Virus record (IMG/VR): IMGVR_UViG_3300038620_000113
Location: 1 to 60,912 of that record
Length of the DNA stretch: 60,912 bases
Origin: a virus
Lineage: Duplodnaviria > Caudoviricetes
Direction: 5' to 3' (one strand)
The notes under the pieces were generated by a model. That model ran no database searches, was not told where the DNA came from, and was given only the letters and a program-made list of their open reading frames with translations. Positions 706 through 59,458 of the stretch are shown piece after piece (the stretch's first letter is position 1; each line of letters begins with the position of its first letter). The position numbers and the translations under genes were made by a program.

Positions 706-1395
706 TTATTTCTTTTTCATGAGTTTTTTGTTAACTACATCATAACCCTCTACTTCACCAACATTTTCATAGTCAAATCCTTCAAGAACCGCAATTTTTT
801 GTTCTGGAAAATAACCATAAGTAAAGTAGTAACAAGCTTGACCTACTATTTCAGTAAATAAAGCTGGAAGTGCATCATTAGGAGCTAACTTTGCATGTAA
901 GTTATACGCTTTTATTTCACCACGAGTTCCAAATGGATGGTTTCCCCCAATGTGCACAATATAATCATGAACAGTTCTAAAAACTATATTATCTTTTACT
1001 GAAAAAACTGGATGGTCACTATAATCCATAGATATCATTATTCTATTGTTTTCTTCATAATCTTTTTTCATTTCTTGTTGTGTTTCATATGGATCTTCAT
1101 GGTAAATAACTGAATATTTTTCCCCCATAATATCTATTTCCGAAGGATTATTTTTATACTTTTCCTTTGTTGATACAAAAATAACATCAATTTTAGAAGT
1201 TAATCTTTTAAAAAACGTATAACATGAGTCAGAAAGTGATTTCCAATGTTTAACAGCACTGGGATCATATTTTGGTGCATTATGGTATGCTTCAGCTACA
1301 AGTCTTTTATAATATTTGTATCTTTTTAACACTAATTTTTCATCAAGCTGATTTTTATTTTCGTTTAAGTATTCACTAAAAGTTCTTAATTTCAT
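706..1395 (-). CDS. putative head-packaged protein with possible metal-binding HDxxxH motif
   Basis: leader MKLRTFSEYLNE; FRTVHDYIVH...GE...H...ALFTE..GQ. Confidence 0.55.
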   Translation of the reverse strand: MKLRTFSEYLNENKNQLDEKLVLKRYKYYKRLVAEAYHNAPKYDPSAVKHWKSLSDSCYTFFKRLTSKIDVIFVSTKEKYKNNPSEIDIMGEKYSVIYHEDPYETQQEMKKDYEENNRIMISMDYSDHPVFSVKDNIVFRTVHDYIVHIGGNHPFGTRGEIKAYNLHAKLAPNDALPALFTEIVGQACYYFTYGYFPEQKIAVLEGFDYENVGEVEGYDVVNKKLMKKK

Positions 1396-1540: not shown

Positions 1541-2200
1541 TTAAATTTTATTCAATATATCTTTAGTTTCTTCTGCTATTTCTTGGTCTGATTCTGCATC
1601 AATAGGAATTGATTTAACCACTTTATTTTCTTTTCCAGTTACAATATCAGGCCCATGCACGTCTAAAATCAAATCTACGCAAAATCCACTATCACTTTTC
1701 CTACCACAACTTCTTACAAGAACAGAAAAATGGTAAATGATTTCTTTAAGTTCACCTAAATAATAATTTTCATAATCTTCATCACTCATTTCATCTATAC
1801 TTATATCTGTTCCCATTTCTCTATTGTAAAGATCAATTAATTTTTCTTCAATTTCATCAATGTTAAGCTCCCTATCGAAAGCTGTAATTCCAGTTCCCAT
1901 ACCTGTAGTAGCAAACCAAGCAGCATCTTGCATAACCGCTATACCTGTGTATACACCATCAAACAATTGATGGGCTTTACCTTTACTACCTTCAAAGTCT
2001 TCATCTTGTGCTTCGATTTGAGTTACAAGCCTCTCATACAAATCCTCCAAACTGTTTTGGATTTTGGGATTTGCAAATAAGTCTTCTCCGATAGCTTCAT
2101 TCACTCTACCAGCCCGGCGGCTTTCGCGAATTGGAGTTCTTCTGTTTTTACGGCTTGTGCCTATGATAAATTCGTTAAATGTGGGTAGTTTGCTTTTCAT
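1541..2200 (-). CDS. putative internal head protein
   Basis: leader MKSKLPTFNEFI; upstream AATAAATA. Confidence 0.55.
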   Translation of the reverse strand: MKSKLPTFNEFIIGTSRKNRRTPIRESRRAGRVNEAIGEDLFANPKIQNSLEDLYERLVTQIEAQDEDFEGSKGKAHQLFDGVYTGIAVMQDAAWFATTGMGTGITAFDRELNIDEIEEKLIDLYNREMGTDISIDEMSDEDYENYYLGELKEIIYHFSVLVRSCGRKSDSGFCVDLILDVHGPDIVTGKENKVVKSIPIDAESDQEIAEETKDILNKI

Positions 2201-2285: not shown

Positions 2286-3506
2286 TTAAAAACCAACTGA
2301 CTGTTGAGCCATTCCAACTGCTTTAGATGGATCGCCGTTAGCCTTTTTCCACAGGTCTTTTGCCATTTTGTTGGCTTCGTCTGGATCATATTCATCATCG
2401 CTTGAAATTGCATCCCCAAGTAAATCATGAACATAAGCAAAAAATTCACGTTTGTTACTAATTTTTTTTCCAGTTCTACCAACGTCTTCGTTAATATACT
2501 TTAAATCATATTCTTTTTTTTTACTTTCTGAAATAGCACCGGCACTATCTAAAGTCCAAAGAACTGCATCTTCAACTTCAACACCAAACTTTCTTGATGC
2601 TTTTTTAGCATCTCGCATAATATTTTCAAATCTATCACCTTGATCAGAAAATACAATATTCCCCTTTCCATCTTGAATTTCAAGACTTTGATGATTTCTA
2701 TCAATGTCAACATCATAACCCTTTCTATAATACATGTTAGCAATAGTTTTAATATCGTCTTTCATGGGATTTGCCATTTCATTAGTTTTACTTTCTGATT
2801 TTCCATAAACTTCATCCTCACCAAATGTTATGGTTCCATCAGATGCATCCCTGAACATATTACCAGTTTCCCAATCATAATCATCTTCATCTTCTTCATA
2901 TTCTAAGTCTTCAGGGTCATCATCAAGCCCATCCATATCATCATCCCTATAATCTGGTTCTTCTGGATCGGAATCATAATCATTATCATAGTCTTCAAAA
3001 TCGTCATCCTCTAAATCGTCTTCAAGTTCATTTCTTACATCAATTACATCAGCATGAAAATCATGACCACTATCATAACTTTGTGTAGAAGCATCGGTAA
3101 AGTCATCAATAACTTCAAACTGATCGCGTCTCAATTCATAACTTCTAAGTGTATCATAATCTTCAACATTGTGAATTACTTGATCAAAAGCAATACTATA
3201 TAGACCACGATAACTACCTTCAACATAACCTGTTTTTCCTACCATATCTTTAGGAACATCAGAATTTTGAAGAACCCTTACACGAGAACCAATATGAATT
3301 TTATCGTATTCATTATTTGGATAAATGTTACCATCATATGTTTGAGGAAAACGCTTTTTGGCTTTATCCATAAAACGATCTGCTTGTTTGTCTTGATGGT
3401 GATCAAAGCTTCCAACCTGCGTAAAGCCTTCCAAACCAGTGTAGTTTTCTTTCAAATAATCACCGAATGTTTTTATTTTGTTGTGAATTCTTTTATTTCT
3501 AGACAT
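2286..3506 (-). CDS. putative internal head protein, acidic, multi-domain
   Basis: leader KIKTFGDYLKE; KOW/SH3-like IGSRVRV..GKTGYV; long D/E tract; internal ESKTNE. Confidence 0.55.
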   Translation of the reverse strand: MSRNKRIHNKIKTFGDYLKENYTGLEGFTQVGSFDHHQDKQADRFMDKAKKRFPQTYDGNIYPNNEYDKIHIGSRVRVLQNSDVPKDMVGKTGYVEGSYRGLYSIAFDQVIHNVEDYDTLRSYELRRDQFEVIDDFTDASTQSYDSGHDFHADVIDVRNELEDDLEDDDFEDYDNDYDSDPEEPDYRDDDMDGLDDDPEDLEYEEDEDDYDWETGNMFRDASDGTITFGEDEVYGKSESKTNEMANPMKDDIKTIANMYYRKGYDVDIDRNHQSLEIQDGKGNIVFSDQGDRFENIMRDAKKASRKFGVEVEDAVLWTLDSAGAISESKKKEYDLKYINEDVGRTGKKISNKREFFAYVHDLLGDAISSDDEYDPDEANKMAKDLWKKANGDPSKAVGMAQQSVGF

Positions 3507-21432: not shown

Positions 21433-21462
21433 ATAAATAAATAACAAAAAAAAACAATAATT

Positions 21463-22206
21463 ATGAGAAGCAAACTACCTACATTTAATGAATTTATCAA
21501 AGAAAGTAAAACCAATGAAAGTTTTAGTTTTTCTAATTTTGATGTTGATGAAGTAGCAACAGCTATAGCAGATAACGTAAACGATAGAGCACTTAAAATG
21601 GCTATGAAAGATGCAGCAGATGAACATAACATAAAATTTAAATCTACTGGAAATTTAGAAGAAGATTTAATTGGTCTGTTGGATGAAGCAGAAATTATGC
21701 GTGGAACTTCATTCAAAGAAAAAGTTATGAAACATATTATTGAAGTTGCCGAAACTAAAGATATGAATGGAGTAGAAGCTGCAGAAGAGGTTTTAGGGGA
21801 AAGTAAAACCAATGAAAGTTTTGAAGGTTTTAACTTGGATTATGACAGTATTAAACATGAGGGTAATATAGTAGAAGCCCTAGCAGATAATGTAAATGAT
21901 AAGGTTCTTAAAATGGCCATAAAAGATGCAGCAAGATTTTATGGTTTTGAATTTAAAGTCACGGGAAATGTAGAAACAGATTTATATAATATATTGGATG
22001 AAGCAGAAAATCCAAGTGTACCATCAGATTTAGACGGAGTTGAGTTTAAAACCCAAGTTCTTGAATACATTATTCAAACGGCTAAAAAGAAAGATATGAA
22101 TGGAGTAGAAGCAGCAGCAGATGATTTCAACGATAGTAAGAACTCAAACCCAGATAAGTACGATAAAGCTGAAAAGTTTGCTTTAAGGAACACAAGGATG
22201 CCATAA
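21463..22206 (+). CDS. putative internal head protein with duplicated domain
   Basis: leader MRSKLPTFNEFIKE; two ESKTNESF..ADNVND..KMA.KDAA..KDMNGVEAA repeats. Confidence 0.65.
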   Translation: MRSKLPTFNEFIKESKTNESFSFSNFDVDEVATAIADNVNDRALKMAMKDAADEHNIKFKSTGNLEEDLIGLLDEAEIMRGTSFKEKVMKHIIEVAETKDMNGVEAAEEVLGESKTNESFEGFNLDYDSIKHEGNIVEALADNVNDKVLKMAIKDAARFYGFEFKVTGNVETDLYNILDEAENPSVPSDLDGVEFKTQVLEYIIQTAKKKDMNGVEAAADDFNDSKNSNPDKYDKAEKFALRNTRMP

Positions 22207-27820: not shown

Positions 27821-28537
27821 ATGAAAATTAAGTCATTTTATGAATTTGTTAATGAAAACTCAAGTTTTAATAACATTAATGATGAGTATGGAATTGTTTA
27901 TAATGTAGTTTTGCATATTGAAAACGATGCAAAAGATTTAAAAAAATTTTCATCTTTAAAAGATGCAAAGAAATTTGTTGACAATCTTAAACGTAAAGAA
28001 TTAAGTCTTGATGATAGATATCATAATGATACTGTAACAGTAACAATAGAAAAAACTGAATTGGAAAATGATGGAGATATCATAGATTCTGAAGAAGTTT
28101 ATAGTAAAAATTTTCCACCTGTTAATTATAAAAGTGATAAATTATTAGATGAGTTCAGAATAAAGTTTGTTGATAAATATTATGGTGGCAGATCTAGAAA
28201 TTATTATGATAACTATTTTGAAATTGATTTATTTACTGATGTTTATGATTATGACATAGATGTAGATAATGACGTATCTGTTGAAGTTAGAATTTCTGAC
28301 CATAGTGAAAATCCTGACAACATAGATCGCTACGGAATTCCACCAGATTATCACATATCAATTGTTATTGCAGATAAAGATATAACATTTGATAAATTTT
28401 ATTTGTCTAATACGTTAGACAAAAAACAAACTGAAGTGCAAGTTTGGTTTGATTCGGATTCAACAGTTAACGAAATAATGGACTGGTTAAAAAATACCTT
28501 TAACAAAATTAAAAAAATTGAAACAAGTGAAAAATAA
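27821..28537 (+). CDS. putative internal head protein
   Basis: leader MKIKSFYEFVNE; VRISDH motif. Confidence 0.6.
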   Translation: MKIKSFYEFVNENSSFNNINDEYGIVYNVVLHIENDAKDLKKFSSLKDAKKFVDNLKRKELSLDDRYHNDTVTVTIEKTELENDGDIIDSEEVYSKNFPPVNYKSDKLLDEFRIKFVDKYYGGRSRNYYDNYFEIDLFTDVYDYDIDVDNDVSVEVRISDHSENPDNIDRYGIPPDYHISIVIADKDITFDKFYLSNTLDKKQTEVQVWFDSDSTVNEIMDWLKNTFNKIKKIETSEK

Positions 28538-29528
28538 ACTAGTTACATTTAGTCAGTTTGTTAATGAAAAACGAAGAAACCCAGAGTTTAATAAAAAAGA
28601 AAATTTTATTGAATTTTTGCAAAGAGTTATAGGAGATGATCCAACTAATTGGTACATTTCTTTTAGAAACGAAGACAATGTTACTTTTACAAATCCTTTT
28701 ACTAAGTATGCTACACCTGCTGGGTATTATGCTTATCCCCTTTATGTTCATTCCCACCATAAAGAATCACTATACCAGACTTTAATTAATGCATGGAAGA
28801 GGCTTAATGATCCTAGCTTAGAATATGAAGAATCATTGGATTTAGAAAACAATCTTGAGCATTTTTATATTTATATAGCCGATATAATGCCTTATATATC
28901 ACCCGATCCAAAAGTTGTCCATCTATTAAAAACAAATGAAGAATCAGTCATTTTAACAGAAAGAACTCCTTACAGAGAAATTAAAAAGTATTTAGATAAG
29001 TTATTAAGTATCGTCAAAGAGTTTGATAATGAAATAAGAGATAGCTTCTATAAACTTTATACATTACTTTTTTATGGGTATGAAGGTTTTAATAAAGAAT
29101 ATAAAAATTTTCTTGAAGAAGAAGATTTAGATGAATTTGATGACGTCGATGAAGCTTTTGATATGTTATTCAACGTCCTTGATAAAAATATTAAAATGAT
29201 AGAAGATGTAAGTGAAGAAAGAAAAAATATAATTTATGGAATACTAGAAGATTATGAAAAAAACCCAAAATTTAAACATAAAAATTATGTGGGAGTATTA
29301 TTTAATTTAGTTATAGCATTGTCTATAATGAAGAAAGGGAAAACTGCGCCAAGACTATCTACAAATCTCTTTAAGAAATTGGGGATAGATGGATTTGTAG
29401 ATACTTTACATTCTTTTAATTATATTCATTCCGCAGAAGAACAACAAGCTGTCTTCTTTACTAGAAAAGTAATAGATGAATTAGAATCTAAAGACTTAAA
29501 ATTGGTACTTTATGGAAGTTACGAATAA
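28518..29528 (+). CDS. putative head-packaged ADP-ribosyltransferase-like protein, paralog 1
   Basis: TFSQFVNE-KRRNP; WYISFR, TPAGYYAYP, GIDGFVD, IHSAEEQQAVF. Confidence 0.5.
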   Translation: MKQVKNKLVTFSQFVNEKRRNPEFNKKENFIEFLQRVIGDDPTNWYISFRNEDNVTFTNPFTKYATPAGYYAYPLYVHSHHKESLYQTLINAWKRLNDPSLEYEESLDLENNLEHFYIYIADIMPYISPDPKVVHLLKTNEESVILTERTPYREIKKYLDKLLSIVKEFDNEIRDSFYKLYTLLFYGYEGFNKEYKNFLEEEDLDEFDDVDEAFDMLFNVLDKNIKMIEDVSEERKNIIYGILEDYEKNPKFKHKNYVGVLFNLVIALSIMKKGKTAPRLSTNLFKKLGIDGFVDTLHSFNYIHSAEEQQAVFFTRKVIDELESKDLKLVLYGSYE

Positions 29529-29549
29529 TAAATAGAAAAAACAATAATT

Positions 29550-30743
29550 ATGAAGATTAAGTCATTTTATGAATTTGTTAATGAAAGTTATAAATCGAGT
29601 GGTGAAAATCTTTCAGATTCTAAAGATTTCCAAAAAACACTTCCTAAAGAAATTAAGGATTTGGCTAATTTATTTGAAAAGCATGGTCATGAATTAATGG
29701 TAGTTGGTGGCGCGGTTCGCGATTTTCTTATGGGAAAAGAACCTAAGGATTATGATTTGGCTACTGATGCTAAACCCGATGAAATTGAAAACATACTTTC
29801 AAAACATTATAAAACGCTGGATGTTGGGAAACAGTTCGGTGTTATAGTTGCAGTTATTCCAAATTTTCCTGAAGGTGTTGAAATTGCTACTTATAGAGAA
29901 GATGTTTATTCAGATAATGATAAGGATTCCAGAAATCCGAGTTCCATAAAATATTCCACAATTGAAAAAGATGTTAGGCGTCGAGACTTAACACTAAATG
30001 CACTTTTTTATGATGTTGGTAAAAATCAATTTGTTGATTTAGTTGGTGGTAAAGAAGATATTGCTAATAAAGTAGTTGATACGGTTGGTAAAGCAGAAGA
30101 ACGATTTGAAGAAGATCCCCTACGAAAACTTCGTGCTATTCGGTTCACTGCAATAATGAAAGGCGATCTTAAAGATCATGTAAGTCGTGCTATTAAAAAG
30201 AACAACTTACTAACAGATGTTTCTAGGGAAAGAATTATAGAAGAATTTAGAAAAGGAATCGAAAAGTCAAAATCAACTGAATATTACTTGGAGCTTTTGG
30301 ATGAACATGGATTTTTAAGTCAGATATTTGTTGGTTATGAAACCAATAAAAACTTTATTGAATCTAATAAGTGGCGAATTGTTATGGCTGCTTTATTAAC
30401 TGATATAGATTCAGAACAACGTCTTAATATACTAAAAAAGATGAAACTTTCAAAACAAGATTTTAAGAGTATTGACTTATTAGCATCTTTAAAACATTTT
30501 GACCCCAAAGAAATTTATAGTTTCAAAAGAGCATTAGATAAAGTAAATGTTTCAAAATCTGAAGTTAACGAATTTGTAAAGAAGGTGGGTGGCAATAAAA
30601 ACATGATTATAAAAGCATTTGAATATGAATTGTCTATTGAACCTGAAAAGTTAATTCAAAAAGGTTATGAAAAACAAGAAATTGGTAAAAAACTAAAAGA
30701 ACTTGAATATCAAAACTTTTTGAAGTATTTAAAAAATAAATAA
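29550..30743 (+). CDS. cca: CCA-adding tRNA nucleotidyltransferase (class II) with head-targeting leader
   Basis: VGGAVRD, DYD, RRDLTLNAL, EDPLRKLRAIRF, SRERI. Confidence 0.9.
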   Translation: MKIKSFYEFVNESYKSSGENLSDSKDFQKTLPKEIKDLANLFEKHGHELMVVGGAVRDFLMGKEPKDYDLATDAKPDEIENILSKHYKTLDVGKQFGVIVAVIPNFPEGVEIATYREDVYSDNDKDSRNPSSIKYSTIEKDVRRRDLTLNALFYDVGKNQFVDLVGGKEDIANKVVDTVGKAEERFEEDPLRKLRAIRFTAIMKGDLKDHVSRAIKKNNLLTDVSRERIIEEFRKGIEKSKSTEYYLELLDEHGFLSQIFVGYETNKNFIESNKWRIVMAALLTDIDSEQRLNILKKMKLSKQDFKSIDLLASLKHFDPKEIYSFKRALDKVNVSKSEVNEFVKKVGGNKNMIIKAFEYELSIEPEKLIQKGYEKQEIGKKLKELEYQNFLKYLKNK

Positions 30744-30758
30744 AAAAAAAACAAAGCC

Positions 30759-31220
30759 ATGAAAAGTAAGCTACCAACATTTAATGAATTTATAAGTGAA
30801 CAGTTAAATGAAGCTTCATCAAAACCGACAAGTAAACAATTAAAAATGATTAAACTACTTGGTGGTGATAAAAGTGATGTAGAAACAAAAAAAGATGCAA
30901 GTGAAAAAATAAAGTCATTAAAAAGTGATATAGTAACAAATCCTGTTAGTATATTTTATTACGAAGGAGAAACACTTGATAGAAGTTCTGTTTTACTGGC
31001 AACACCTAAAATGCTTGGTTTAGATAAAAAAAATATGCCTGAATTTCTACAAGTTACAAATAGGTACGGTTATGATTATCTTTATCAACTTTTTGATGGT
31101 TCTCAAGGAAGTTATAATCCTCCTAAAGTTGGTGAATGGCGGTACAAGTTAATAGGTCCTAAAAATAAGTTTAAGCCACCCTTAGAAGTTAGTGTCAGAT
31201 GGAATCCATCAGAAAATTAA
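30759..31220 (+). CDS. putative internal head protein
   Basis: leader MKSKLPTFNEFISE. Confidence 0.6.
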   Translation: MKSKLPTFNEFISEQLNEASSKPTSKQLKMIKLLGGDKSDVETKKDASEKIKSLKSDIVTNPVSIFYYEGETLDRSSVLLATPKMLGLDKKNMPEFLQVTNRYGYDYLYQLFDGSQGSYNPPKVGEWRYKLIGPKNKFKPPLEVSVRWNPSEN

Positions 31221-31889: not shown

Positions 31890-32453
31890 ATGACTATGAA
31901 TTGGGAAAACGTAATTGAAACCGCACCAATTTCCCTCTTGAATTTATTGAAGGAAACTTCAAAGATTTACGAACGTCCTGATTACCATCCCGAAGAATCC
32001 ACTAGGGTTCATATTGAAGTGGTAACACGACGGTTAGAAGTTACAAACGACCCTGATCTTATCATGGCGGGGTTTATCCATGACCTAGGTAAATGGCCAC
32101 ATAATCAAAAAGGTGCTGGTAAAGATGGTTGGCCAACCGCGCCTGGACATGCAAATTATGCTAGGGCATTGGTTGAAAATAACCAAGATATTTGGGATTG
32201 GATTAAATCGTGGGGTGCAAATCCCCAAGTGGTGGCTGAAATTAGTGGACACCACATGAAGATTAAAAACTTTGATAGTGAAAAGCCAAAGCGTCAAAGA
32301 AAGATGAAAAACCAAGTTTCCCCAAAATCTTGGATAAAGCTTCAAGTGTTTACGGAGGCTGATAACATGCTTCGCCCCTTCTACTATGAAGGTGTTTCTA
32401 ACGAAAAGGCTGAAGTCCTTTTGAGTATTTCATCCAAGCAACGCTTTCTATAA
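31890..32453 (+). CDS. HD-domain phosphohydrolase
   Basis: YHPE..H, IHDLGK, GHA, HM, AD. Confidence 0.8.
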   Translation: MTMNWENVIETAPISLLNLLKETSKIYERPDYHPEESTRVHIEVVTRRLEVTNDPDLIMAGFIHDLGKWPHNQKGAGKDGWPTAPGHANYARALVENNQDIWDWIKSWGANPQVVAEISGHHMKIKNFDSEKPKRQRKMKNQVSPKSWIKLQVFTEADNMLRPFYYEGVSNEKAEVLLSISSKQRFL

Positions 32454-32471: not shown

Positions 32472-32879
32472 ATGAACGGTGATCTTTTCATATTGCGTGG
32501 TGTTCCAGGTTGTGGCAAGTCCACTGTAGCTGAAACCATTGCAGCACAAGGTGGTAAAGTCATAAGTGCTGATAACTTCTTTATAAAAGAAGATGGAACT
32601 TATGATTTTGATATTAACAAGCTAGGTGATGCACATAATTGGGCACAATCCGAGGCTGAAAAAGCTTTGAGTTCTGGTATTGCTAAAGTTGTAATAGCCA
32701 ATACAAACTCTCGTGAAAAAGAAATGAAGCCCTATCAAAAGATGGGTGAAAAGTATAATTACCGTGTGCATGTTCTAGTAGTAGAGAATCGACATGGATC
32801 AAATGATATCCATAGTGTTCCCAGTGAAGCGAAAGAAAGAATGGAAAATAGTATTCGCAACAGCTTGAAATTAAAATAA
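32472..32879 (+). CDS. P-loop polynucleotide kinase-like protein (AAA_33)
   Basis: LRGVPGCGKST, SADNFF, NTN, HSVP. Confidence 0.8.
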   Translation: MNGDLFILRGVPGCGKSTVAETIAAQGGKVISADNFFIKEDGTYDFDINKLGDAHNWAQSEAEKALSSGIAKVVIANTNSREKEMKPYQKMGEKYNYRVHVLVVENRHGSNDIHSVPSEAKERMENSIRNSLKLK

Positions 32880-33722: not shown

Positions 33723-34622
33723 ATGAAAACTAAACTACCCACATTTAACCAGTTTATTAATGAATCTTTAGTTAATGAAAAGCTTTATGATGAACCCGTA
33801 GAAGTAAATGGAAAGGTTTTAGTTATACGATTTTCAGATGATATTCAAAATGATATTAAAAGGGGGTATAGCACTTGGAATCTGGGTGGGGATCACTCAG
33901 AAATTCCCGGAGTTTTTAATAGTTTAAAATCGGCTGTTCTTGGGCTTTTTAGTGATTCTCAATACGCCGCCCTTTTTAATTATGATGGTGTTGTTTGGCG
34001 TATTCAATATGACTTTATTAATGATTATATTGATTCTGACAATTTAAAGGGTTTTTATAATTACTTAAAAAAACATAAAGATCGTTATCTGTTAGATATG
34101 TTTAATAAAGTTAAAGATTATGAAGAATTTGAAGAGGAATTAAATAATGACTTGGAAGACATTAAAAATTATTACGGAAAAACGTCTGAAGGGTGGATTG
34201 AATTTTTAAGCAGGTTTGATTTGCGTCCTGATAGAATGCTGGAGGAAATGTTTGAAAATAATTGGGAAAGCGCAAAGTATTATGTTTTAAATATTATTAA
34301 AGAAATGGACAAAACAGGTGGTAAAACTTGTATTGAAGATATAAGATATAATAAAAATTATAATAGTTGGGGTATAGTGCATCACGAAGGACTTTCTTGT
34401 TTTCTTGCTCCCTTTGACAATATAGAGAAAAACTTTGAAATGGCTAAAGATATAGCAAATGATTTGTTAGGCTCTAGTTTCGGTTATGTTGCTATAGGTG
34501 ATGTAGAGGTTTATAAAAGCATGAAAATTAAAATGCATAATGATACAGTTAATATGCACTTTTTACTTTGTGATTCCGTTGAAGAAGAAGAATGTGGAGA
34601 GCCTGTTCATTATACAGATTAG
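33723..34622 (+). CDS. putative internal head protein
   Basis: leader MKTKLPTFNQFINE; upstream TAAATA. Confidence 0.6.
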   Translation: MKTKLPTFNQFINESLVNEKLYDEPVEVNGKVLVIRFSDDIQNDIKRGYSTWNLGGDHSEIPGVFNSLKSAVLGLFSDSQYAALFNYDGVVWRIQYDFINDYIDSDNLKGFYNYLKKHKDRYLLDMFNKVKDYEEFEEELNNDLEDIKNYYGKTSEGWIEFLSRFDLRPDRMLEEMFENNWESAKYYVLNIIKEMDKTGGKTCIEDIRYNKNYNSWGIVHHEGLSCFLAPFDNIEKNFEMAKDIANDLLGSSFGYVAIGDVEVYKSMKIKMHNDTVNMHFLLCDSVEEEECGEPVHYTD

Positions 34623-34681: not shown

Positions 34682-35299
34682 ATGAACACCACTTTGTGTG
34701 GTTGTAATTTTTCAAACGAAAGTCCAAAAATTCTTTTTTTTATTGAGCAAGTAGATTATCAAACTGCAATGAAAATTGTAATTGATAATCACTATTTGCA
34801 CAGAAAGCCACCTTGTAGCAGAGCTTATGGAATTTTTTGTAATTCCTGTCAAAAGATATTAGGAGTAGTGGTGTATGGTGTTTCTTGCAGTAACACTTTA
34901 TTAAGAGGAATTTGTGGTGAAGATGAAGCAAACAGCGTTTATGAACTTACAAGACTATGGATAAAGGATGGAACACCAAGAAATACTGAAAGTTATCTTA
35001 TAGGAAATACATTAAAGTTACTTGATAAGGAAATAATAGTTTCGTTTTCCGAAATAGCACAGGGGCATATTGGAACAGTTTACCAAGCCACAAATTTTTT
35101 ATATTGTGGATTGAGTGCAAAATTCAGAGACCCAAAAGTTAAAGGACTTGAACACCAACACCATGCAACCTATGCTAGAAATATGACTATGAAGCAAGTC
35201 AAGGAAAAGTATGGAGAAGAAAACGTTTACTATGTAGATAGACCAAGAAAGCACCGATATATTTTTTTTAACGGAAAAAGGAACTTTTTAAAAAGTTAA
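34682..35299 (+). CDS. Mom-like adenine-modification (GNAT) enzyme, C-terminus disrupted
   Basis: HYLH, ELTRLW, HIGTVYQATNFLYCG, KHRY. Confidence 0.8.
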   Translation: MNTTLCGCNFSNESPKILFFIEQVDYQTAMKIVIDNHYLHRKPPCSRAYGIFCNSCQKILGVVVYGVSCSNTLLRGICGEDEANSVYELTRLWIKDGTPRNTESYLIGNTLKLLDKEIIVSFSEIAQGHIGTVYQATNFLYCGLSAKFRDPKVKGLEHQHHATYARNMTMKQVKEKYGEENVYYVDRPRKHRYIFFNGKRNFLKS

Positions 35300-35315: not shown

Positions 35316-36686
35316 GTTACAACAACAAATGAAATTCTTTGAATTTATTTTTGCTGTTTTTCGTGGCGAAAGGTACGGTAACAGCCTTTCCGGTCGATAT
35401 TCAATGCCGCATTATAATCGGCATTAGTTGAATATCCACAATCAATACATCTAAACCGCTCTTGAGAGGAACGATTTTCACGATGCAATGAACCACAATT
35501 AGAGCAAGTCTGACTAGTATAAGCCGGTGAAACCTTCATCAACTTGATACCAGTTTCACTACAAACTTGCTCTAGTTTCTTTATAGTTTTAGCGTAAGAC
35601 CAGTATTGAAGTTTGTTGTTAGTCTTTTTGCCTAACTTGGATTTATGCTTGACTTGTTTGAGGTCTTCGATAGAAAGCAATTCCACACCGTTTAGGTCTA
35701 ATTTTTGGTTAATACAATAATTGATTAAATTATCTCGTTGAATCAGTTTCCGCTTGTAAGCCTTAGAGCCGCGTTGTTTACGGGTGATTTGTTCATAGAG
35801 GCTATCAAATTCTTGACCTATTGATTGATTATCACTAGTCTGAATAAAGACCTTCTGACCTAAGTCAATTCCTATATGAGAACAATCGGGATTAGCCATT
35901 GGCTGCGGGGCATTCTTCTCCCAAAACAAGTTAATAAATGTCTTACCTGATTTTCTTTGTACTTGAATAGTATTTTTGAGTTGATACTGGCTATTGAGTA
36001 ACTGATTGGAATGACGGTGTTGTTTAAGTGGTAGATGAATGGTATAATAACGGTTTTTAGTATTGTAGTTGCGGTAGGGAGTGGTTATTTTAACGAAGTT
36101 ATCAAAATGATTTCCCCTTCTTATGTTACAAAGAGCACTCTCTAGGCTTAAATTAACATTATTCAAATTAGGCTTAGTAAAATATTTGCTTAAATGAACC
36201 GGCTTGAGATTGAGTTTTTTGAATCGCTTTTGTAAGAATGGATGATTGGGCTTATGTTTTATCAAGTAAGCATAAACCTTTTGATAGCGCTTATAACGGC
36301 GCTGGTTGGCTTTGGAACTTTGAGATCGAATGATTTCGGATGCCTGTTTATAGGCGGCTTTCCGATACTTAGAATGCTCAATGTTACAAACAATAGGTAA
36401 ATTAGAATTGCCTAGAGTGGCCCGCAAAGGCAATTGATTGGCTAGAATCAAATCTAAGTAATGATTAACACAACGAGTATAATCTTCCATTACTTGATTC
36501 AGGAACCTTAACTTACCTTGATTGGTTATCCGAGTAATGCTATGCCGTGAGGTTTTAATCAAAAGAAAAAATCTTTTTCCTACTTTATTTATTTAGTTGA
36601 ATAAAGAGAAATGATTGACTTAATTAATTTTCATTTCATTTCACTTTTTAGCAAAGAATTTCAAATTATAGTTTTTGCTGTTGTAA
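35316..36686 (-). mobile_element. non-autonomous IS607-like element carrying only tnpB
   Basis: bounded by CC cores (35314-15, 36687-88); GTTACAACA/TGTTGTAAC inverted ends; excision restores VLPYPKNQ*. Confidence 0.8.
35345..36562 (-). CDS. tnpB: RNA-guided endonuclease TnpB
   Basis: GIDLG, IEDL, PAYTSQTCSNC, CIDC, NADYNAALNI. Confidence 0.92.
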   Translation of the reverse strand: MIKTSRHSITRITNQGKLRFLNQVMEDYTRCVNHYLDLILANQLPLRATLGNSNLPIVCNIEHSKYRKAAYKQASEIIRSQSSKANQRRYKRYQKVYAYLIKHKPNHPFLQKRFKKLNLKPVHLSKYFTKPNLNNVNLSLESALCNIRRGNHFDNFVKITTPYRNYNTKNRYYTIHLPLKQHRHSNQLLNSQYQLKNTIQVQRKSGKTFINLFWEKNAPQPMANPDCSHIGIDLGQKVFIQTSDNQSIGQEFDSLYEQITRKQRGSKAYKRKLIQRDNLINYCINQKLDLNGVELLSIEDLKQVKHKSKLGKKTNNKLQYWSYAKTIKKLEQVCSETGIKLMKVSPAYTSQTCSNCGSLHRENRSSQERFRCIDCGYSTNADYNAALNIDRKGCYRTFRHEKQQK

Positions 36687-37888: not shown

Positions 37889-37978
37889 GGAGGGGCAAGC
37901 AGACTTGGTGACTGCGTCCGACTTGAAATCGGTTCGGGTTAGTAGCCCTTGGAGGTTCGATCCCCTCCCTCTCCGCCA
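37889..37978 (+). tRNA. tRNA-Ser(TGA), CCA encoded
   Basis: GGAGGGG/CCTCTCC acceptor, CT-TGA-AA loop, long variable arm, TTCGATC. Confidence 0.85.
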
Positions 37979-38336: not shown

Positions 38337-38410
38337 GGGCCTGTGGTCTAATTGGTTAAGGCATCGCTCTCATAAAGCGAAAATTCTCGGTTCGATTCCG
38401 AGCAGGCCCA
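38337..38410 (+). tRNA. tRNA with CAT anticodon (Met or Ile2), no CCA
   Basis: GGGCCTG/CAGGCCC, TCGCT-CTCATAA-AGCGA, TTCGATT. Confidence 0.9.
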
Positions 38411-38436
38411 CTTAAACAATAAATTATTTAACAAAT

Positions 38437-38784: not shown

Positions 38785-38857
38785 CCGTCAGTAGCTCAGT
38801 TGGCAGAGCAACAGACTTTTAATCTGTGGGTCGGGGGTTCGAATCCTCCCTGACGGA
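38785..38857 (+). tRNA. tRNA-Lys(TTT), no CCA
   Basis: CCGTCAG/CTGACGG, ACAGA-CTTTTAA-TCTGT, TTCGAAT. Confidence 0.93.
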
Positions 38858-39114
38858 CTATAAAACAAAATTGAATATGGTTGATAATACTTTTAACTTT
38901 TTTCTAATCCATAGTAAAGATTATGGCTGCTTATTTGCGTTTTGAGCTTCTGTAATTTTTATGGGATTTATATCTGTTAAAATTCACTTTCATAATTTGA
39001 ATTATCGAGGAAAAATATATTCCCTAAAATATTAAATTATACAATACTTGTTGGATGTAATTTTATCTTTTATTTTTATTGTTTCTATAGTTGTTCCACT
39101 AATTTTGATAATAT

Positions 39115-40220: not shown

Positions 40221-40306
40221 GGAAAGGCAAGCAGATTGGCGACTGTTCCCGACTTGAAATCGGGCGAGGTTAACAGCCCTTGGGGGTTCGAATCCCTCCC
40301 TTTCCG
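40221..40306 (+). tRNA. tRNA-Ser(TGA), no CCA
   Basis: GGAAAGG/CCTTTCC, CCCGA-CTTGAAA-TCGGG, long variable arm. Confidence 0.88.
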
Positions 40307-40314
40307 CTAAACGC

Positions 40315-47532: not shown

Positions 47533-47618
47533 GGAGGAGTGGCCGAGTGGTCGAAGGCGCCTGCCTGCTAAGCAGGTGTGGTTAATAGCCACCGTAGGTT
47601 CGAATCCTACCTCCTCCG
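47533..47618 (+). tRNA. tRNA-Ser(GCT), no CCA
   Basis: GGAGGAG/CTCCTCC, CCTGC-CTGCTAA-GCAGG, long variable arm. Confidence 0.95.
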
Positions 47619-52090: not shown

Positions 52091-52438
52091 ATGAATAGAA
52101 AAACAAAATTACCTACATTTAACCAATTTATTAGTGAAAATCGTCATTTTGGACCTGATTCATTTCATTCAGGTTTTAAAAGCTATTTTGAAATGAATGT
52201 TGGAACAGATTATGGTTCTTTTGAATATAAGAGTGAGAAAGATCTTGCTTTTGATTTAGATATAAGAGTAGATGCAGTTAAAAAAATGGTTGACTATCTT
52301 TTAGAACTTGTTGATAGCAATAAAGCAGTTAAAAGTAAAGAGGCGCGTGTTATCGCATTAAATTACTTAGCGGATCTCGATGAAGATAGTCTGGATAGAT
52401 TAATAGACAAAGCTTACTTTTCAGATATTAAACTTTAA
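52091..52438 (+). CDS. putative internal head protein
   Basis: leader TKLPTFNQFISE. Confidence 0.6.
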   Translation: MNRKTKLPTFNQFISENRHFGPDSFHSGFKSYFEMNVGTDYGSFEYKSEKDLAFDLDIRVDAVKKMVDYLLELVDSNKAVKSKEARVIALNYLADLDEDSLDRLIDKAYFSDIKL

Positions 52439-52478: not shown

Positions 52479-53504
52479 ATGAATAGAAACACAAAATTAC
52501 AAGAAGGTAAAATTCCATCATTTACTGAATTTACTAAAATGAATGAAAATTTTATGGATAAACCTATTGATAAATTAGTAGATGCTATTTATTCTGCTGC
52601 AGGGGGTTATCTTCATCTTCCAGAACGGAAACGTATTAAAATAGATGGTGAATATTATGGTGTTAATCAACCCCTTTCTTTGAATGAAAATGTCCTTGAG
52701 GCGTTAACTATGTTTATATATCGTCAAATAGACACCGTAGAAAGAAATATAGAAAGTGTACTGGATGCTTATTTGTTATCACAATTTATTTATATAAGAA
52801 CTAACTACCTATATAATATAGCTGAAGAGGGAAAAACTAAATCTGAATTAAAAGAGATACGTGAATTTGTAAAAGAAAAAAGAAATCGTTTTCGTATTCA
52901 AGATGCAAAAATAAGCAAGAAGAATACTCTTGATGACATTGCGAGACATGATAAAATGAGACATGATAAAATTAAGCGCCAGCTAAACAGCCCCGGGATT
53001 TCTCGTAAAAGCAAGCGTGCTGGTGGAAATGCCTTTAGTAAAAAATATTTACTAGGTAAAAATTTTTGGGATGATAGGCTTTCTAAATATAATGAAAAAG
53101 AAGTTGAAGTAAAACCAAGTTTTATTAAAGATGAATTAGGAATAAGTATACTATCCGACTATGCTGCACCCAATCCTAAAATAGGTCCAGAACAAGGTGA
53201 AAAATTCGATTATTTTATAACAGGTAAGGTAGTTCTTGAAAACAAGAAAGGAGATAAATCATCTTACAACTTTGATGGTGAATTTATTAAAATGCCTTTT
53301 GAAGATTACCTCCCAGAAGATCAAAAAGCAACCCTTAGTATAACATCTGCATACCCCTTTGTAAAAGAGTTAGTAGTATTCGGTATAGAAACCGACAACT
53401 TCGGTACAAAGAATACCATTGTAGACGCTCTGGTAGGGGTAGCTAGAGAATACGAAGAAAAAATAATGAATACATTTTTAGATGAATATAATGTAGAAAC
53501 ATAA
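52479..53504 (+). CDS. putative internal head protein
   Basis: leader GKIPSFTEFTKMNE. Confidence 0.6.
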   Translation: MNRNTKLQEGKIPSFTEFTKMNENFMDKPIDKLVDAIYSAAGGYLHLPERKRIKIDGEYYGVNQPLSLNENVLEALTMFIYRQIDTVERNIESVLDAYLLSQFIYIRTNYLYNIAEEGKTKSELKEIREFVKEKRNRFRIQDAKISKKNTLDDIARHDKMRHDKIKRQLNSPGISRKSKRAGGNAFSKKYLLGKNFWDDRLSKYNEKEVEVKPSFIKDELGISILSDYAAPNPKIGPEQGEKFDYFITGKVVLENKKGDKSSYNFDGEFIKMPFEDYLPEDQKATLSITSAYPFVKELVVFGIETDNFGTKNTIVDALVGVAREYEEKIMNTFLDEYNVET

Positions 53505-53597: not shown

Positions 53598-54243
53598 ATG
53601 AATTACTATAAACTAAAAACTTTTACAGAGTTTGTTAATGAAAGTAATACATCATCTCTTTTAAAAAATAAAAAACAAGAATTTCTTAAAAACGAATACT
53701 TAAAAAAACTTTTTAATGAACTCAATGAAAAATATTAGAATGGTAAATTAGAGATGCCAGTAAAGGGGTTTAAAGTTGGTTCTATGAAAAATATACTTGC
53801 TTACACAAGACCAAGAGGAAATCAAAATGTACAATTTAGATCCCAAATATAGACATTGGCATATTAGTAATATAGAATTTAGTGATGACAAGTTAAAAAA
53901 ACCAAGACTTGTTATTGTAATGGAACCAAATAAAGATGGATATGATATTTTATTGGGTCAAATTAATTATGAAAAAGCAAAAGAATTATCAAATTTACAT
54001 AAGATAATGTCTATAGTAGAAAATCTTAAGAAAAAAAATAAAAATTCTGAATTCACACTTTATAAATCATGGGAAGGTCAACTCTCTAAATATCCACTTC
54101 AAAGAACTGTAAATCAATTAAAGCTTTTCAAAGCTCATAATGACAAAACTTTATAGAAAAATTTTTATGAAAATTCTGAAAAAGTATCATTAGAAGAACT
54201 TAAAAAAGATGCAAAAATTTCAGGAAAGGGCTCTATAAAATAA
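53598..54243 (+). pseudogene. decayed internal-head-protein gene
   Basis: leader MNYYKLKTFTEFVNE, two premature TAGs and a frameshift; includes ORF 53797..54156. Confidence 0.55.
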
Positions 54244-54326: not shown

Positions 54327-55466
54327 ATGCTAAACATACAAAAGCTTATTCAAGAGAAAGGAATTGATGAAGCAACTAGTGAGTTGGGAGTTGAATATCG
54401 AGATTACGGGCACAAGATTATACTTGCCTATAATCAACTTGAATCGGACTTTGATAATCCAGCAACTCATGAGTGTCGTGGATTGGTTCTTGAAAAGGAA
54501 ACATTAAATGTGATGTCCTTTCCACTTTATAAATTTTTTAATGCTGGTGAAAAACATGCTGCTACTTTGGATTGGAGTAGTGTAAGTGTTTTGAAAAAGT
54601 ATGATGGAACAATGATTCATATTTACTATGATTGGATTATTGATGATTGGTGTGTAGCAACCACTCGAACTGCCAATGCTGAAGGTGCATCTACTAACTT
54701 TTCTTCTTTTGAAAGTCTTTTTAAGTACGCTCTTGAAAGGATGGGTCTCTCATGGAACAGCCTAAAAAATGAAAAGTTACAAAAAGGATATACCTATGTA
54801 TTTGAGCTTTGTACACCTTACAATATTATTGTAACACCGCACCCCACTTCACAAGTTTATCTTTTAACAATAAGAGATTTGTTTAACAATCAAGAACAAA
54901 ATCTTGAAATTGTTAGGCATGTAGCAGAAATAGATCTGGGAGTTTATCCTCCTGCTTCTTATGATTTGTTAAATCGTCAAGAAATTGAACAGGCAGCATC
55001 CAATCTTCCTTTTGATGATGAAGGATATGTAGTTGTTGACAAAAACTTTGACAGGGTAAAGATAAAAAATCCAGCCTATGTTGCCACTCATCATCTCACT
55101 ACTTCTCAGGCTGAATGGCGAATTATGGATATTGTTAAACAGGGAGAAGTTGAAGAATTCATTGCTTGTTTTCCTGAAAGGCAAAATGAAATTCGTAAAT
55201 TAGAAAACTATTACAATTGGCTAGTTGAAACTTTAGAACGGGTTTTAGAGGAAGTTTATCATACATCCGAATATGCTCAATGGATAGATAAACCCAGTCG
55301 CAAACCTTTAGCCCTTTGGCTTAAAGAACGCTTGAATCGCGAAGGTTTAATATCTTGGATGGGAATTATCTTTTCTATTTTAGACGGCAAAAACAGTAAA
55401 AGCATCAAGCAACAGGTTAGAGAACAGAACAGTCGGGATATTTACAAGTTCTTAAAATCTTTTTAA
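54327..55466 (+). CDS. RNA ligase (T4 Rnl1-like)
   Basis: ECRGLV, KFFN, KYDGT, FE, EGYVV, RVKIK. Confidence 0.9.
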   Translation: MLNIQKLIQEKGIDEATSELGVEYRDYGHKIILAYNQLESDFDNPATHECRGLVLEKETLNVMSFPLYKFFNAGEKHAATLDWSSVSVLKKYDGTMIHIYYDWIIDDWCVATTRTANAEGASTNFSSFESLFKYALERMGLSWNSLKNEKLQKGYTYVFELCTPYNIIVTPHPTSQVYLLTIRDLFNNQEQNLEIVRHVAEIDLGVYPPASYDLLNRQEIEQAASNLPFDDEGYVVVDKNFDRVKIKNPAYVATHHLTTSQAEWRIMDIVKQGEVEEFIACFPERQNEIRKLENYYNWLVETLERVLEEVYHTSEYAQWIDKPSRKPLALWLKERLNREGLISWMGIIFSILDGKNSKSIKQQVREQNSRDIYKFLKSF

Positions 55467-56551: not shown

Positions 56552-58039
56552 TTACCCATAATTTGCAATATTTACAACCTGTCTTTCTTCTACTATATCA
56601 CTGCTTAAAAAGAGTGCTTGTGATGGCTCATTTGGATGGATAAATGATTCTTCATCTCCGTAGTCTATAAAGCCATTTATTCCTGCTTTCTTAAAAACAC
56701 TTGAACTGATTCGACTTACGGGACTATTGGATTCCACATAATGACTAACTAACATGACGGCTGTGTACAAAAACGGAACATAGTATTCATCTTCACCGTT
56801 TTCAATATTTTCAATGAGATCATGAAGCTTTTCATAAATATAGGGCAACTTAAAGTTATGAGCAACAGGTTCAAAACTTTCTAATCTTCTAATAGTGGTT
56901 TTAAATTCTTCAGATATAGGGTCATCTATATAATTTAAAAAGTTAGGATCGAATTCATAATCTTTTTTTGAAAGTTCTTTAGAAATTTTGTTTAAATAAT
57001 TTTTAACGGTTTCTTTATCTGAACCATATGATATAATTGAATCATCTTTTTTAATTTTTATAAATTCTATGTAATTTGAACTGGGAACAAAAGGAAATAC
57101 ATCTGATGCCACATAATCAAAGAAAAATCTGTTAATTAATTTTGATGATAATATTTTAATAACTTTTTCATTCAAATTAAAATAGTTTTGGATTACATCA
57201 AAATAATCTTTGATAATCTTTTTATAACTTTTTTTTAAATTTCGACTTATACCTTTCTGTCTTTCATGTAAGCTATAAGTCTTATCAAAATAAAGTTTTA
57301 ACAGAAATAGATTTGGAATTCCTGTATAATCATCATATGGATAACTTGATACAAAAACTTTTTCATTATCTTCAGTTGTTATGTGAAAACTTATTTCACA
57401 ACTAAAATTTGAAAAGTCTAAATCTTTTAAGTTGGCAGTTAAATATTTACGTTTACCACCTAAACTTTGTATTTCTTTATAAAGATTTCTTTTCCTAGAG
57501 TTTGTACTGGTATCTTCAAAATTTAATATATTTAAGGTTTTTTTATAATCTTCAAGTAAAGTTTTATACAAATCTTTATATGGAGAAACCCCTTTTATTT
57601 TTAATACTTCATTTTGGAAGTTCTCATAAACTTCACTTAAAATATTATCTATATTTTTTATTTCTAATAAGTTTACTTCTGGTACTTGCTTAATAACTTT
57701 TGAATTTGGTTCAATAAGTTTTTTAGGAACTAATTCATATCCTTTTATTACATTATAAATATCTATAAACGGTTTTAGACTTAAATTTTTGTCTACTCCA
57801 GTCTCTCTTAAATAGTTTACCGCTGGATATGAATAGTATCCCGCTGGTGTGTTATATGCTGTATTGTAATTTATAAAATTGGTGGTCAGTTTATCCCTAA
57901 ATGATAAAAACCAGTTTTTCAAATTATCTTCTAAATTTATTTTTTGAATAATATCAACAATACTTACTTTATCTTGTACATTTTTATCGGGGTTTCTTCG
58001 CTTTTCTGCTATGTAATTTTCAAAACTTTTAATTTTCAT
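56552..58039 (-). CDS. ART-like head-packaged paralog 3
   Basis: SFENYIAE-KRRNP, WFLSFR, TPAGYYSYP, GINGFID, IHPNEPSQA. Confidence 0.5.
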   Translation of the reverse strand: MKIKSFENYIAEKRRNPDKNVQDKVSIVDIIQKINLEDNLKNWFLSFRDKLTTNFINYNTAYNTPAGYYSYPAVNYLRETGVDKNLSLKPFIDIYNVIKGYELVPKKLIEPNSKVIKQVPEVNLLEIKNIDNILSEVYENFQNEVLKIKGVSPYKDLYKTLLEDYKKTLNILNFEDTSTNSRKRNLYKEIQSLGGKRKYLTANLKDLDFSNFSCEISFHITTEDNEKVFVSSYPYDDYTGIPNLFLLKLYFDKTYSLHERQKGISRNLKKSYKKIIKDYFDVIQNYFNLNEKVIKILSSKLINRFFFDYVASDVFPFVPSSNYIEFIKIKKDDSIISYGSDKETVKNYLNKISKELSKKDYEFDPNFLNYIDDPISEEFKTTIRRLESFEPVAHNFKLPYIYEKLHDLIENIENGEDEYYVPFLYTAVMLVSHYVESNSPVSRISSSVFKKAGINGFIDYGDEESFIHPNEPSQALFLSSDIVEERQVVNIANYG

Positions 58040-58051
58040 AGTTGTTTTTTT

Positions 58052-59458
58052 TTATTGAGTTACTATTAGACCTTCAACATCAGAAACAGCTTCAACATCT
58101 TTTTTTCTAAAATCTTTAGGATTCATAGAACAATCAAAGTAACCCCCGACCTTTTTAGGTGCACCTTCAAGGGATCTTAAATCGTTACGCCTACAGTTAA
58201 AATTACCTCCGACTTTTTCGGGTGCACCTTGAAGAGTTGTTAATCTATTGTCTTCACAAAAAAAATCATTTTTAATTTCTTTAGGCATACCTTTAAGAGA
58301 ACTTATTTTGTTCTGGGTGCAATCAAACCTACCCCCAATCTTTTTAGGAGCACCTTCAAGTGATTCTAGTTTGTTGTCAGCACAACTAAAACGTTCGCCA
58401 ACTTTTTTAGGGGTACCCTCAAGAGTTTTTAGATTATTTTCAATACAGTGAAAATCACCACTAACATATCCAAATTTATAGTTTTTTGTAATTTTTTTAA
58501 AAACTTCAGGTTGGTTTGATAAATTAACAGTTCCTTTAACATTAATTGTATTTCCATCTATTTCAAAAGTTCCCTCAACAAAATCACTTAATACAGTTTT
58601 AATTGGAGTATCTGGATTATATGCACATCTTCCCTCATCATACAGTCCTTTAAGCTGTTCGTATCTAGTTTTACTTAGTTTTTGATTCTTTTCAAGCCAT
58701 GCATCAACTGTCTCTTTAAAGCCATTAACAGGGGTTCCTTTAATTTCATTATCATAATCCCTAAATAAAGCAATTTCTTCACTGTCTTCACTGACGTATG
58801 GTTTTATTAAAACCCGTGCAACGGGGTTATTAATGTTCAAATCATCTTTTTTAATTAAATAAGCTATAATTGTTCCCTTTTTAACATCTTCCATTATATA
58901 AAATTTTTGACTTCCAGTATTTAAATTCATGCATGAAGTCCAACCTCTTTCATCTTCTTCACCGTATAAATGGGTGCTCATTCCTGCAATGTCGTATGGA
59001 TGGCGTGAAATAACTACAAGATAATCACTTTTATCTCTTTGAGTTGATTTCTTATTAAGTTCTTTTTCGTAATCACTTTTTAACTTTTGAACATTTATAT
59101 CACTCTTTTTAAGACCACTATCTTTCATTAAAACTTTTACAATACTTGTTGTTCTTTTATCCGAAACTGCTAGGTTTTGGTTAAAATCTTCAACTTCATA
59201 ATTTGTATATTCTAAGGCTTTTTTAATTCTATCCCTAACATCTTTACTTATCTTTTGTTTTTGTTCTTCGGATTCTTTAAGTTCTAAGTAAAGTCTGTAT
59301 TTGGGTTTTCCATTTTCCTTCTTTCCAAATATATCCTGATAGAATTTTTCACCTCCAGCTTCTTTCCATGCTTTAATATAAGATTTAGCTTGACTTGGAT
59401 GGAGTGCTTCATCAATGGAACTCGAATTAATGTATTCTTGGAAAGATTTTAAGCGCAT
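58052..59458 (-). CDS. putative head-packaged protein with C-terminal 22-aa LRR-like repeats
   Basis: MRLKSFQEY; ISRHPYDIAGMS..WTSCM; five N.L..LEGAPKKVGG.F.C repeats. Confidence 0.65.
   Translation of the reverse strand: MRLKSFQEYINSSSIDEALHPSQAKSYIKAWKEAGGEKFYQDIFGKKENGKPKYRLYLELKESEEQKQKISKDVRDRIKKALEYTNYEVEDFNQNLAVSDKRTTSIVKVLMKDSGLKKSDINVQKLKSDYEKELNKKSTQRDKSDYLVVISRHPYDIAGMSTHLYGEEDERGWTSCMNLNTGSQKFYIMEDVKKGTIIAYLIKKDDLNINNPVARVLIKPYVSEDSEEIALFRDYDNEIKGTPVNGFKETVDAWLEKNQKLSKTRYEQLKGLYDEGRCAYNPDTPIKTVLSDFVEGTFEIDGNTINVKGTVNLSNQPEVFKKITKNYKFGYVSGDFHCIENNLKTLEGTPKKVGERFSCADNKLESLEGAPKKIGGRFDCTQNKISSLKGMPKEIKNDFFCEDNRLTTLQGAPEKVGGNFNCRRNDLRSLEGAPKKVGGYFDCSMNPKDFRKKDVEAVSDVEGLIVTQ

Follow-up and report, generated by a model that had tools for sequence, protein, structure and literature searches.

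Why should an enzyme predicted to build the 3' ends of tRNAs carry, ahead of its catalytic core, a short peptide that recurs on other proteins of the same phage? The question is raised by an open reading frame (ORF) at 29550..30743 (+) in IMG/VR virus record IMGVR_UViG_3300038620_000113, whose whole stretch of 60,912 bases is referred to here as the window. This ORF encodes a class II (CCA-type) tRNA nucleotidyltransferase precursor of 397 amino acids (aa), and its first 12 residues, MKIKSFYEFVNE, are identical to those of the ORF at 27821..28537 (+), which encodes a 238-aa protein with no family match. The reading that we favour, with a probability of about one in two, is that these residues form a portable propeptide similar to the capsid targeting sequence (CTS) of phage T4, through which the enzyme would be taken up into the head, lose the leader by a cut after Glu-12 and be injected.

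A nucleotidyltransferase with a leader resembling the T4 tag

An earlier note on this DNA, made from its letters alone, had described a full class II nucleotidyltransferase, and family models, invariant motifs and fold all agree with that description. Pfam finds the PolyA_pol head (2.4e-33) and PolyA_pol_RNAbd (1.5e-05), and the best PHROGs family is phrog_2244, 'tRNA nucleotidyltransferase' (1.1e-54). Across 28 aligned homologs the patterns GGxVRD, DxD, RRDLTxNA and RFxEDxLRxLRxxRF are invariant; the enzyme has motif A as GGAVRD at residues 53-58 and DYD at 67-69, followed by RRDLTLNA at 144-151 and EEDPLRKLRAIRF at 187-199, the latter two aligning to the same residues in the structures 6ibp and 1miv. 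The latter two stretches correspond to motif B (RRDxxxNA) and to motif D (EDxxRxxRxxRF), which serves as the amino-acid template for CTP/ATP. The AlphaFold2 (AF2) model built on the 28-sequence alignment has a mean predicted local distance difference test score (pLDDT) of 89.8 and a predicted template modelling score (pTM) of 0.84, with low confidence in residues 1-20 (pLDDT 48-49) and in the flexible loop. When this model was compared with the PDB by Foldseek, CCA-adding enzymes came out on top (6qy6, 1miv, 4x4w and 7oqx; template modelling score (TM) 0.64-0.72, E 5.9e-16 to 9e-16, 378-411 columns), and their head, neck, body and tail fold was matched over its whole length. The phage enzyme thus shares motifs A, B and D, the flexible loop and the overall fold with bacterial class II CCA enzymes such as those of Planococcus (6qy6/6ibp) and Geobacillus stearothermophilus (1miv), from which it differs in being only 24-25% identical in structural alignments and in having an N-terminal extension of 30 residues.

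This extension consists of the leader, residues 1-12 (29550..29585, +), which we propose to be a head-targeting propeptide cleaved after Glu-12, and of a linker, residues 13-30 (SYKSSGENLSDSKDFQKT; 29586..29639, +), which leads to the first core helix, is of low confidence at residues 14-19 and is about 10 residues longer than in homologs. In the AF2 model the leader (pLDDT about 48) is disordered and lies outside the fold. It is necessarily translated as part of the primary product, because an in-frame stop codon lies upstream at 29529-29531 and the next in-frame Met is residue 49, within the catalytic core. The identity with the leader of ORF 27821, noticed earlier, extends to the DNA, where 35 of 36 bases are the same and the single difference is synonymous; similarity between the two genes stops right after the Glu-12 codon, and their 5' flanks are dissimilar.

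What such a leader might do is suggested by the internal head proteins of T4, all of which reach the core via a targeting sequence of this kind, and whose N-terminal propeptides are stripped by the protease gp21, which cuts after Glu, e.g. at ITE-6 and LTE-619 of Alt (PMC5694885). For IPIII, no more than the first 10 residues are described as necessary for incorporation into the head; within them, residues 4 and 7 are chiefly responsible for targeting and residues 8 and 10 for processing, and foreign proteins bearing the T4 tag are packaged and delivered into the host (PMC9026906). In the T4 record, IPII and IPIII both begin MKTYQEFIAE, while IPI begins MKTFKEFT. When the leader of the window enzyme is aligned with these on EF[IV]xE, it places F6, F9, V10 and E12 at the determinant positions occupied in T4 by Y4, F7, I8 and E10, so that all four are matched. 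The pattern is a selective one in T4 itself: a DNA search for [FY]xEF[IV]xE over its 168,903 bp gave three matches, each falling on residues 4-10 of an ORF, namely those of ipII, ipIII and 61.1. The last of these (NC_000866 18966-19130; L111 667-831) encodes the hypothetical 54-residue gp61.1, which starts MKTFKEFIKE and, judging by this sequence, may be an unrecognised head-targeted peptide.

The likeness to IPII and IPIII, and to IPI and Alt, therefore comprises a short tag right after Met-Lys, two aromatic targeting positions and an [IV]-x-Glu processing site, and in both phages the tag is common to otherwise unrelated proteins whose genes are dispersed in the genome. The differences are that the window tag is two residues longer before its first aromatic residue, that far more ORFs bear it, that the proposed cargo is a 45-kDa RNA-processing enzyme rather than a small basic protein or an ADP-ribosyltransferase, and that the window phage is very distant from T4. 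A search of the literature on CTSs beyond the T-even phages, and on links between CCA enzymes and virions or anti-phage defence, turned up the concept of such a tag for T-even phages and no report of a CTS-bearing CCA enzyme.

Recurrence of the leader in the window and among relatives

Within the window, the leader is a recurrent element. A strict motif, [FY]x[EQND][FYW][VILT]xE within the first 22 residues, is present in 11 of 81 greedily called ORFs, compared with 0.26 expected from the internal rate (3 internal matches in 15,187 positions) and with 500 shuffles that averaged 0.08 and never exceeded 2. One of the 11, at 60670-60840, does not begin with MK and may be a coincidence; six more ORFs have looser copies (1541, 28518, 46173, 47029, 52479 and 58052). 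Four successive genes are tagged, i.e. 27821, 28518, the enzyme and 30759, and 33723 follows soon after. None of the 15 tagged ORFs other than the enzyme has a Pfam match over the cut-off or belongs to a family of known function, and of ten that were run against PHROGs two matched families, both of unknown function.

Selection appears to act on the peptide rather than on a DNA or RNA element, because in pairwise comparisons of five KLPTFN[EQ]FI leaders the codon differences are 34 synonymous to 33 non-synonymous, while the next 14 codons, with 6 versus 130, are unrelated. The exact 12-residue pattern was found in only 9 stretches of IMG/VR, every one of them on other small proteins, which indicates that the exact spacing is rare and the looser form common.

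The earlier note had proposed that homologs be surveyed for the leader, and this survey drew on two sources. Of 8,000 candidates scored in a database search, 2,770 proteins reached E <= 0.001, and the best 120 of these were used. Viral contigs scanned by alignment contributed 585 candidate stretches, 576 of them confirmed; the best 80 loci were kept, of which 78 yielded an enzyme ORF (a pattern scan of viral contigs for close relatives, using the single protein, had given 3 pattern matches and no confirmed one). Collapsed, these sets gave 148 distinct N-terminal regions, from contigs of 27-41% G+C. With each ORF taken to start at its first ATG, a rule that has probably made short leaders look long in a few cases (L004, L058), an N-terminal extension is present in 134 of the 148 regions (9-35 residues in 112, longer in 22) and lacking in 14. 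All but one of the 112 short extensions contain [LIVMN]xE, and in 121 of 136 regions long enough to contain the site, fusions included, its nearest Glu is placed 8-11 residues ahead of the invariant core Pro. Typical leaders end MQLKTFTEFQMVNE/AQ, MKLKNISEFKLVNE/AQ and MIKNYTEFILLLE/AQ (the slash marks the border), and one group of homologs starts ..KTFKEFTE, of which KTFKEFT is common to T4 IPI. Homologs without a leader begin within a few residues of the mature end predicted after the cut.

The same motif also occurs at internal borders. In fusion proteins of 729-2463 residues it precedes the internal enzyme module, e.g. ..TIDE/AKQKLKLNIP, ..EINE/NKITLNVP and ..LINE/AKQLLKIP. These proteins combine an AAA_33 kinase, a CCA-type enzyme, an HD domain and a cytidylyltransferase-like domain, L019 (8828-16219) having AAA_33, PolyA_pol, HD and CTP_transf_like; further examples are L040 (9452-14557), L050, L057, L060, L068 and others, and several start with a ..LTEWL.KPL.E leader.

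A processing protease of the appropriate type is present in related phages, since 5 of 5 large viral records of relatives have a match to PF03420 (Peptidase_S77, the T4 gp21 family) above its cut-off. When two of these records were searched in full with a leader-type regular expression, 5 of 208 ORFs matched in G004 and 11 of 310 in G002, and each time the enzyme was one of them. G002 has five leader-type ORFs immediately after its genes for the head maturation protease (phrog_207, 2.4e-39) and for the major head protein (phrog_138), the latter of which starts MKLINEQ..IIES. The gp21-type protease domain lies in ORFs of 638-673 residues (L084 1447-3360 in G004; L100 2671-4692 in G002), and that of G004 also matches the T4-type prohead core scaffold region and looks like a protease-scaffold fusion.

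The window itself is a linear contig with 30% G+C and an estimated completeness of about 23% (CheckV). It encodes an SbcD/gp47-like nuclease, a DnaB-like helicase, UvsX and DNA polymerase, all replication or recombination genes of T4 type, and with the enzyme, UvsX and a relative's protease as queries the nearest database phages were uncultured phages of 460-735 kb and Lak phages, at 32-42% protein identity. From this gene content, the partial contig and these identities, we regard it as a fragment of an uncultured giant phage distant from T4. The DNA runs that contain the stretch are labelled tidal flat metagenome, and among the runs listed there is no RNA run.

Weighing head delivery against other readings

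The capsid-targeting role that the earlier note had assigned to the leader is thus supported by its likeness to the T4 tag, its recurrence, its conservation at the peptide level and in homologs, and the gp21-type proteases of relatives. Several observations weigh against it. Rules worked out in T4 are being applied to a phage far removed from it, as the identities of the nearest phages make plain, and even the 120 database homologs used in the survey are only 38-47% identical to the window enzyme. The [LIVMN]xE pattern is permissive, with a chance rate of about 40% for stretches this long (a rough estimate, not a computed control), and the window enzyme is an outlier in that 20 residues separate Glu-12 from the invariant Pro. 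If all tagged ORFs were packaged, cargo would account for about a fifth of the genes, far above T4, while the likely partner HD and kinase genes of the enzyme, like the RNA ligase gene, bear no leader. No head gene or head protease was found in the window (PF03420 in 0 of 1), a contig that is only about 23% of a genome; the gp55-like late sigma factor is a weak match (1.8e-4); and phage-collection matches of the enzyme, UvsX and a relative's protease led to no cultured relative with a virion proteome.

The upstream region belongs with these points. A TAAATA box had been noted ahead of the enzyme gene, and a T4-late-promoter-like box, AATAAATA, does lie 15 nt before the ATG (29527..29534, +). 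The box is not confined to leader genes, however: ATAAATA occurs in the 60 nt ahead of 13 of 14 leader ORFs and also of 13 of 67 other ORFs, including uvsX. Of the short-leader genes in relatives, only 8 of 32 have it upstream. A late promoter as a family-wide feature is not supported by the latter count, and the assignment of the leader genes to the late class is weakly supported as a result of both.

The 5' regions of leader ORFs (e.g. 21433-21462 and 52449-52478) have in common ATAAATA repeats, an A-run and ..CAATAATT directly before the ATG, and no Shine-Dalgarno-like purine box, which suggests a common start context for leader ORFs that is independent of a Shine-Dalgarno sequence.

Among the competing explanations, the one that survives best, although we consider it unlikely, is that the leader has no function here and was spread by cassette shuffling via a conserved 36-bp start, or kept by selection for an A/T-rich, unstructured translation start, the enzyme being an ordinary cytoplasmic one that matures phage tRNAs. 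The near-identity of the 27821 and 29550 leaders, ending at the leader border, is what recent recombination would give; leaderless phage tRNA nucleotidyltransferases are common (501 phage records match the enzyme, that of Aeromonas phage 65 being a leaderless example), and four of the five tRNA genes in the window need CCA addition anyway. The near-equal numbers of synonymous and non-synonymous changes between the other copies, ahead of unrelated downstream sequence, point instead to selection on the peptide; the extension is also retained, nearly always with the site, in 134 of the 148 homolog regions, which come from contigs of 27-41% G+C.

Rather unlikely in our estimate is a leader that functions as a tag for something other than the capsid. 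It might be read by a phage chaperone, by an assembly factor that works away from the head or by a system for timing or degradation, or might give a set of late proteins a common address elsewhere in the cell; the enzyme would then act only in the producing cell. In favour of this is the sheer number of tagged ORFs, about 14 in 61 kb, all but one without a family match, so that there is no independent sign that they are virion proteins; the window also lacks head genes, and no virion proteome was found for any relative. It does not readily account for the match to all four T4 targeting and cleavage residues, or for the restriction of the motif in T4 to ORF N-termini, both proven cases included. 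Nor would it lead one to expect [LIVMN]xE at a fixed distance from the core and at internal module borders, or leader ORFs adjoining the protease and capsid genes in G002. Were the leader not head-targeting, what would be left is a phage CCA-adding enzyme of the usual sort whose N-terminus is, curiously, a shared one.

As for the specificity of the enzyme, the CCA-adding activity named in the earlier note is upheld as far as sequence and fold can take it, and is the best reading of this class II tRNA nucleotidyltransferase. The NCBIfam models for CCA tRNA nucleotidyltransferase (178.6 bits; cut-off 290) and pcnB (166.4 bits) score closely and both stay below their cut-offs, whereas the A-adding model reaches just 50.6 bits. 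Sequence matches in the PDB are likewise nearly equal for CCA enzymes (1.5e-32) and for Escherichia coli poly(A) polymerase (PAP; 3.2e-31), the latter of which is structurally the poorer match (TM 0.52-0.54 in Foldseek). After motif A, HMMER alignments show GKQFGV in the enzyme, GRRFRL in PAP and G..HGT in CCA enzymes; we take GRRFRL to be a PAP signature. The flexible loop YREDVYSDNDKDSRNPSSIKY aligns with FRTESSYSDN-RRPDSVEF of 6ibp, and the loop before motif B has the length found in CCA enzymes; alignment with PAP requires gaps here, the longer PAP loop being absent. That the enzyme is instead a poly(A) polymerase, or an A-adding or CC-adding enzyme, is the least probable alternative and a quite improbable one, given that the closeness of the two NCBIfam scores and of the PDB sequence matches, and the C74 already encoded by all four CCA-less tRNA genes, are set against a full-length fold nearer to CCA enzymes, a Bacillus-type loop, the lack of both PAP features and the low A-adding score.

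A proposed delivery of tRNA repair, and the genes around the enzyme

Under head delivery, the leader would bind the scaffolding core of the assembling prohead late in infection, and a gp21-family prohead protease would then cut after Val-Asn-Glu-12, leaving a mature enzyme of about 385 residues that begins at Ser-13 (SYKSSGENLSDSK). This mature enzyme would remain in the DNA-filled head and enter the next cell alongside the DNA, where, ahead of all phage gene expression, it could supply or restore CCA at tRNA ends bearing a 3'-OH; its substrates would be host tRNAs with damaged tails and, later, the four CCA-less tRNAs of the phage itself. Small anti-restriction proteins and an ADP-ribosyltransferase make up the known head cargo of T4-type phages. 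A CCA enzyme in the particle would add maintenance of the translation apparatus to what phages bring along, and would be a new cargo for a known loading system. The leader would also provide a simple sequence rule by which virion cargo could be predicted in uncultured giant phages.

A possible role of such an enzyme lies in counteracting immunity that cuts tRNA tails, of which Cas12a3 is a real example. In a 2026 paper, Cas12a3 is reported to block phage by cutting the 3' CCA tails of tRNAs, and its text states that viral tRNAs cannot readily circumvent tail cleavage and that, to resist it, viruses would have to rely on other means, unknown so far (PMC12851939). An injected CCA enzyme, if real, would be a candidate answer to the question of viral resistance left open in those statements. 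Taken further, a clade of uncultured, T4-related giant phages might deliver tRNA 3'-end repair as cargo, in the form of a ready-made CCA enzyme here and, in relatives, of kinase/CCA/HD/cytidylyltransferase-like polyproteins that the head protease would cut at [LIV]-x-Glu, so that tails cut by e.g. Cas12a3 would be rebuilt from the first second, before transcription; we regard this wider proposal as speculative and, taken as a whole, doubtful.

CCA-adding enzymes have been listed among the RNA-repair functions of jumbo phages (PMC7824862). For phage XacN1, both a CCA nucleotidyltransferase gene and a virion proteome are given, and the available text does not place the enzyme in virions (PMC5852040).

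ARAGORN finds five tRNA genes in the window, and the statement of the earlier note that four of them lack an encoded CCA proved accurate, the sequence being present only in Ser-tga at 37889-37978. The others are tRNA-Met (38337..38411, +) and those for Lys, a second Ser-tga and Ser-gct (38785-38858, 40221-40307 and 47533-47619), and in each the discriminator is followed by C and then by T or A. With C making up 14.9% of the + strand, its presence after the discriminator in 4 of 4 genes has a chance probability of about 5e-4, and it may reflect 3'-end processing or the nucleotides left for the phage enzyme to add.

Downstream of the enzyme, at a distance of two to three genes, are an HD-domain protein (31890..32453, +; Pfam HD 0.0014), likely to be a partner phosphohydrolase of the CCA enzyme, and an AAA_33 P-loop kinase (32472..32879, +; 2.3e-13) of a type that is fused to the enzyme in the relative L019. 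In the E. coli-type multifunctional CCA/repair protein, to whose HD part this protein shows a weak match (9.2e-4), the domain is fused to the nucleotidyltransferase, as it is in some relatives; in the window it is encoded by a separate nearby gene. An RNA ligase of the T4 Rnl1 type is encoded at 54327..55466 (+) (phrog_562 3.3e-50; TIGR02308 2.3e-22, below cut-off). As these three proteins lack the leader, they would act only after expression. In Aeromonas phage 65, ST65p392 belongs to the same enzyme family (28% identity) and is followed by two small ORFs and an HD protein, the same gene order as in the window, but it starts MKTYLVGGAVRD, directly at the core and without a leader. This indicates that the enzyme-plus-HD module is old and the leader an addition.

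The tagged genes are spread over both strands. Around the enzyme, and in addition to ORF 27821, they are a 336-aa ORF read from TTG (28518..29528, +; ..KLVTFSQFVNE/KRRNPE..; looser copy), which is a paralog of 46173/46282 and 56552, and the strict-motif ORFs of 153 aa at 30759..31220 (+; MKSKLPTFNEFISE..) and 299 aa at 33723..34622 (+; MKTKLPTFNQFINE..). Elsewhere on the + strand, the strict motif occurs on ORFs of 247 aa (21463..22206; MRSKLPTFNEFIKE..), 115 aa (52091..52438; ..KTKLPTFNQFISE..) and only 46 aa (53598..53738; ..KLKTFTEFVNE..), and a looser copy on one of 341 aa (52479..53504; ..GKIPSFTEFTKMNE..). On the - strand the strict motif is found on ORFs of 495 aa (56552..58039; MKIKSFENYIAE/KRRNPD..), which had zero matches in the phage collection, 229 aa (706..1395; MKLRTFSEYLNE..) and 406 aa (2286..3506; ..KIKTFGDYLKE..), with looser copies on ORFs of 468 aa (58052..59458; MRLKSFQEYINS..) and 219 aa (1541..2200; MKSKLPTFNEFIIG.., leader-like and without the final Glu). 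A 61-aa leader ORF at 46173-46358 (MKIISFYEYLSEKRRRPD..) overlaps a 242-aa ORF at 46282-47010 (+) in another frame; together the pair resembles the paralogs at 28518-29528 and 56552-58039, and it looks like a frameshifted or slipped copy.

Two further features of the window concern other genes. A Mom-family DNA-modification protein at 34682-35299 (+) (PF25680, 7.6e-40) adjoins a TnpB/Cas12f1-like protein at 35345-36490 (-) (TNB domain, 5.9e-21). Finally, uvsX is flanked by three paralogs of about 297 aa, at 9630-10520, 11802-12695 and 12699-13592 (-), whose N-termini (MKK.DLIPPF.YMGGKG) are near-identical.

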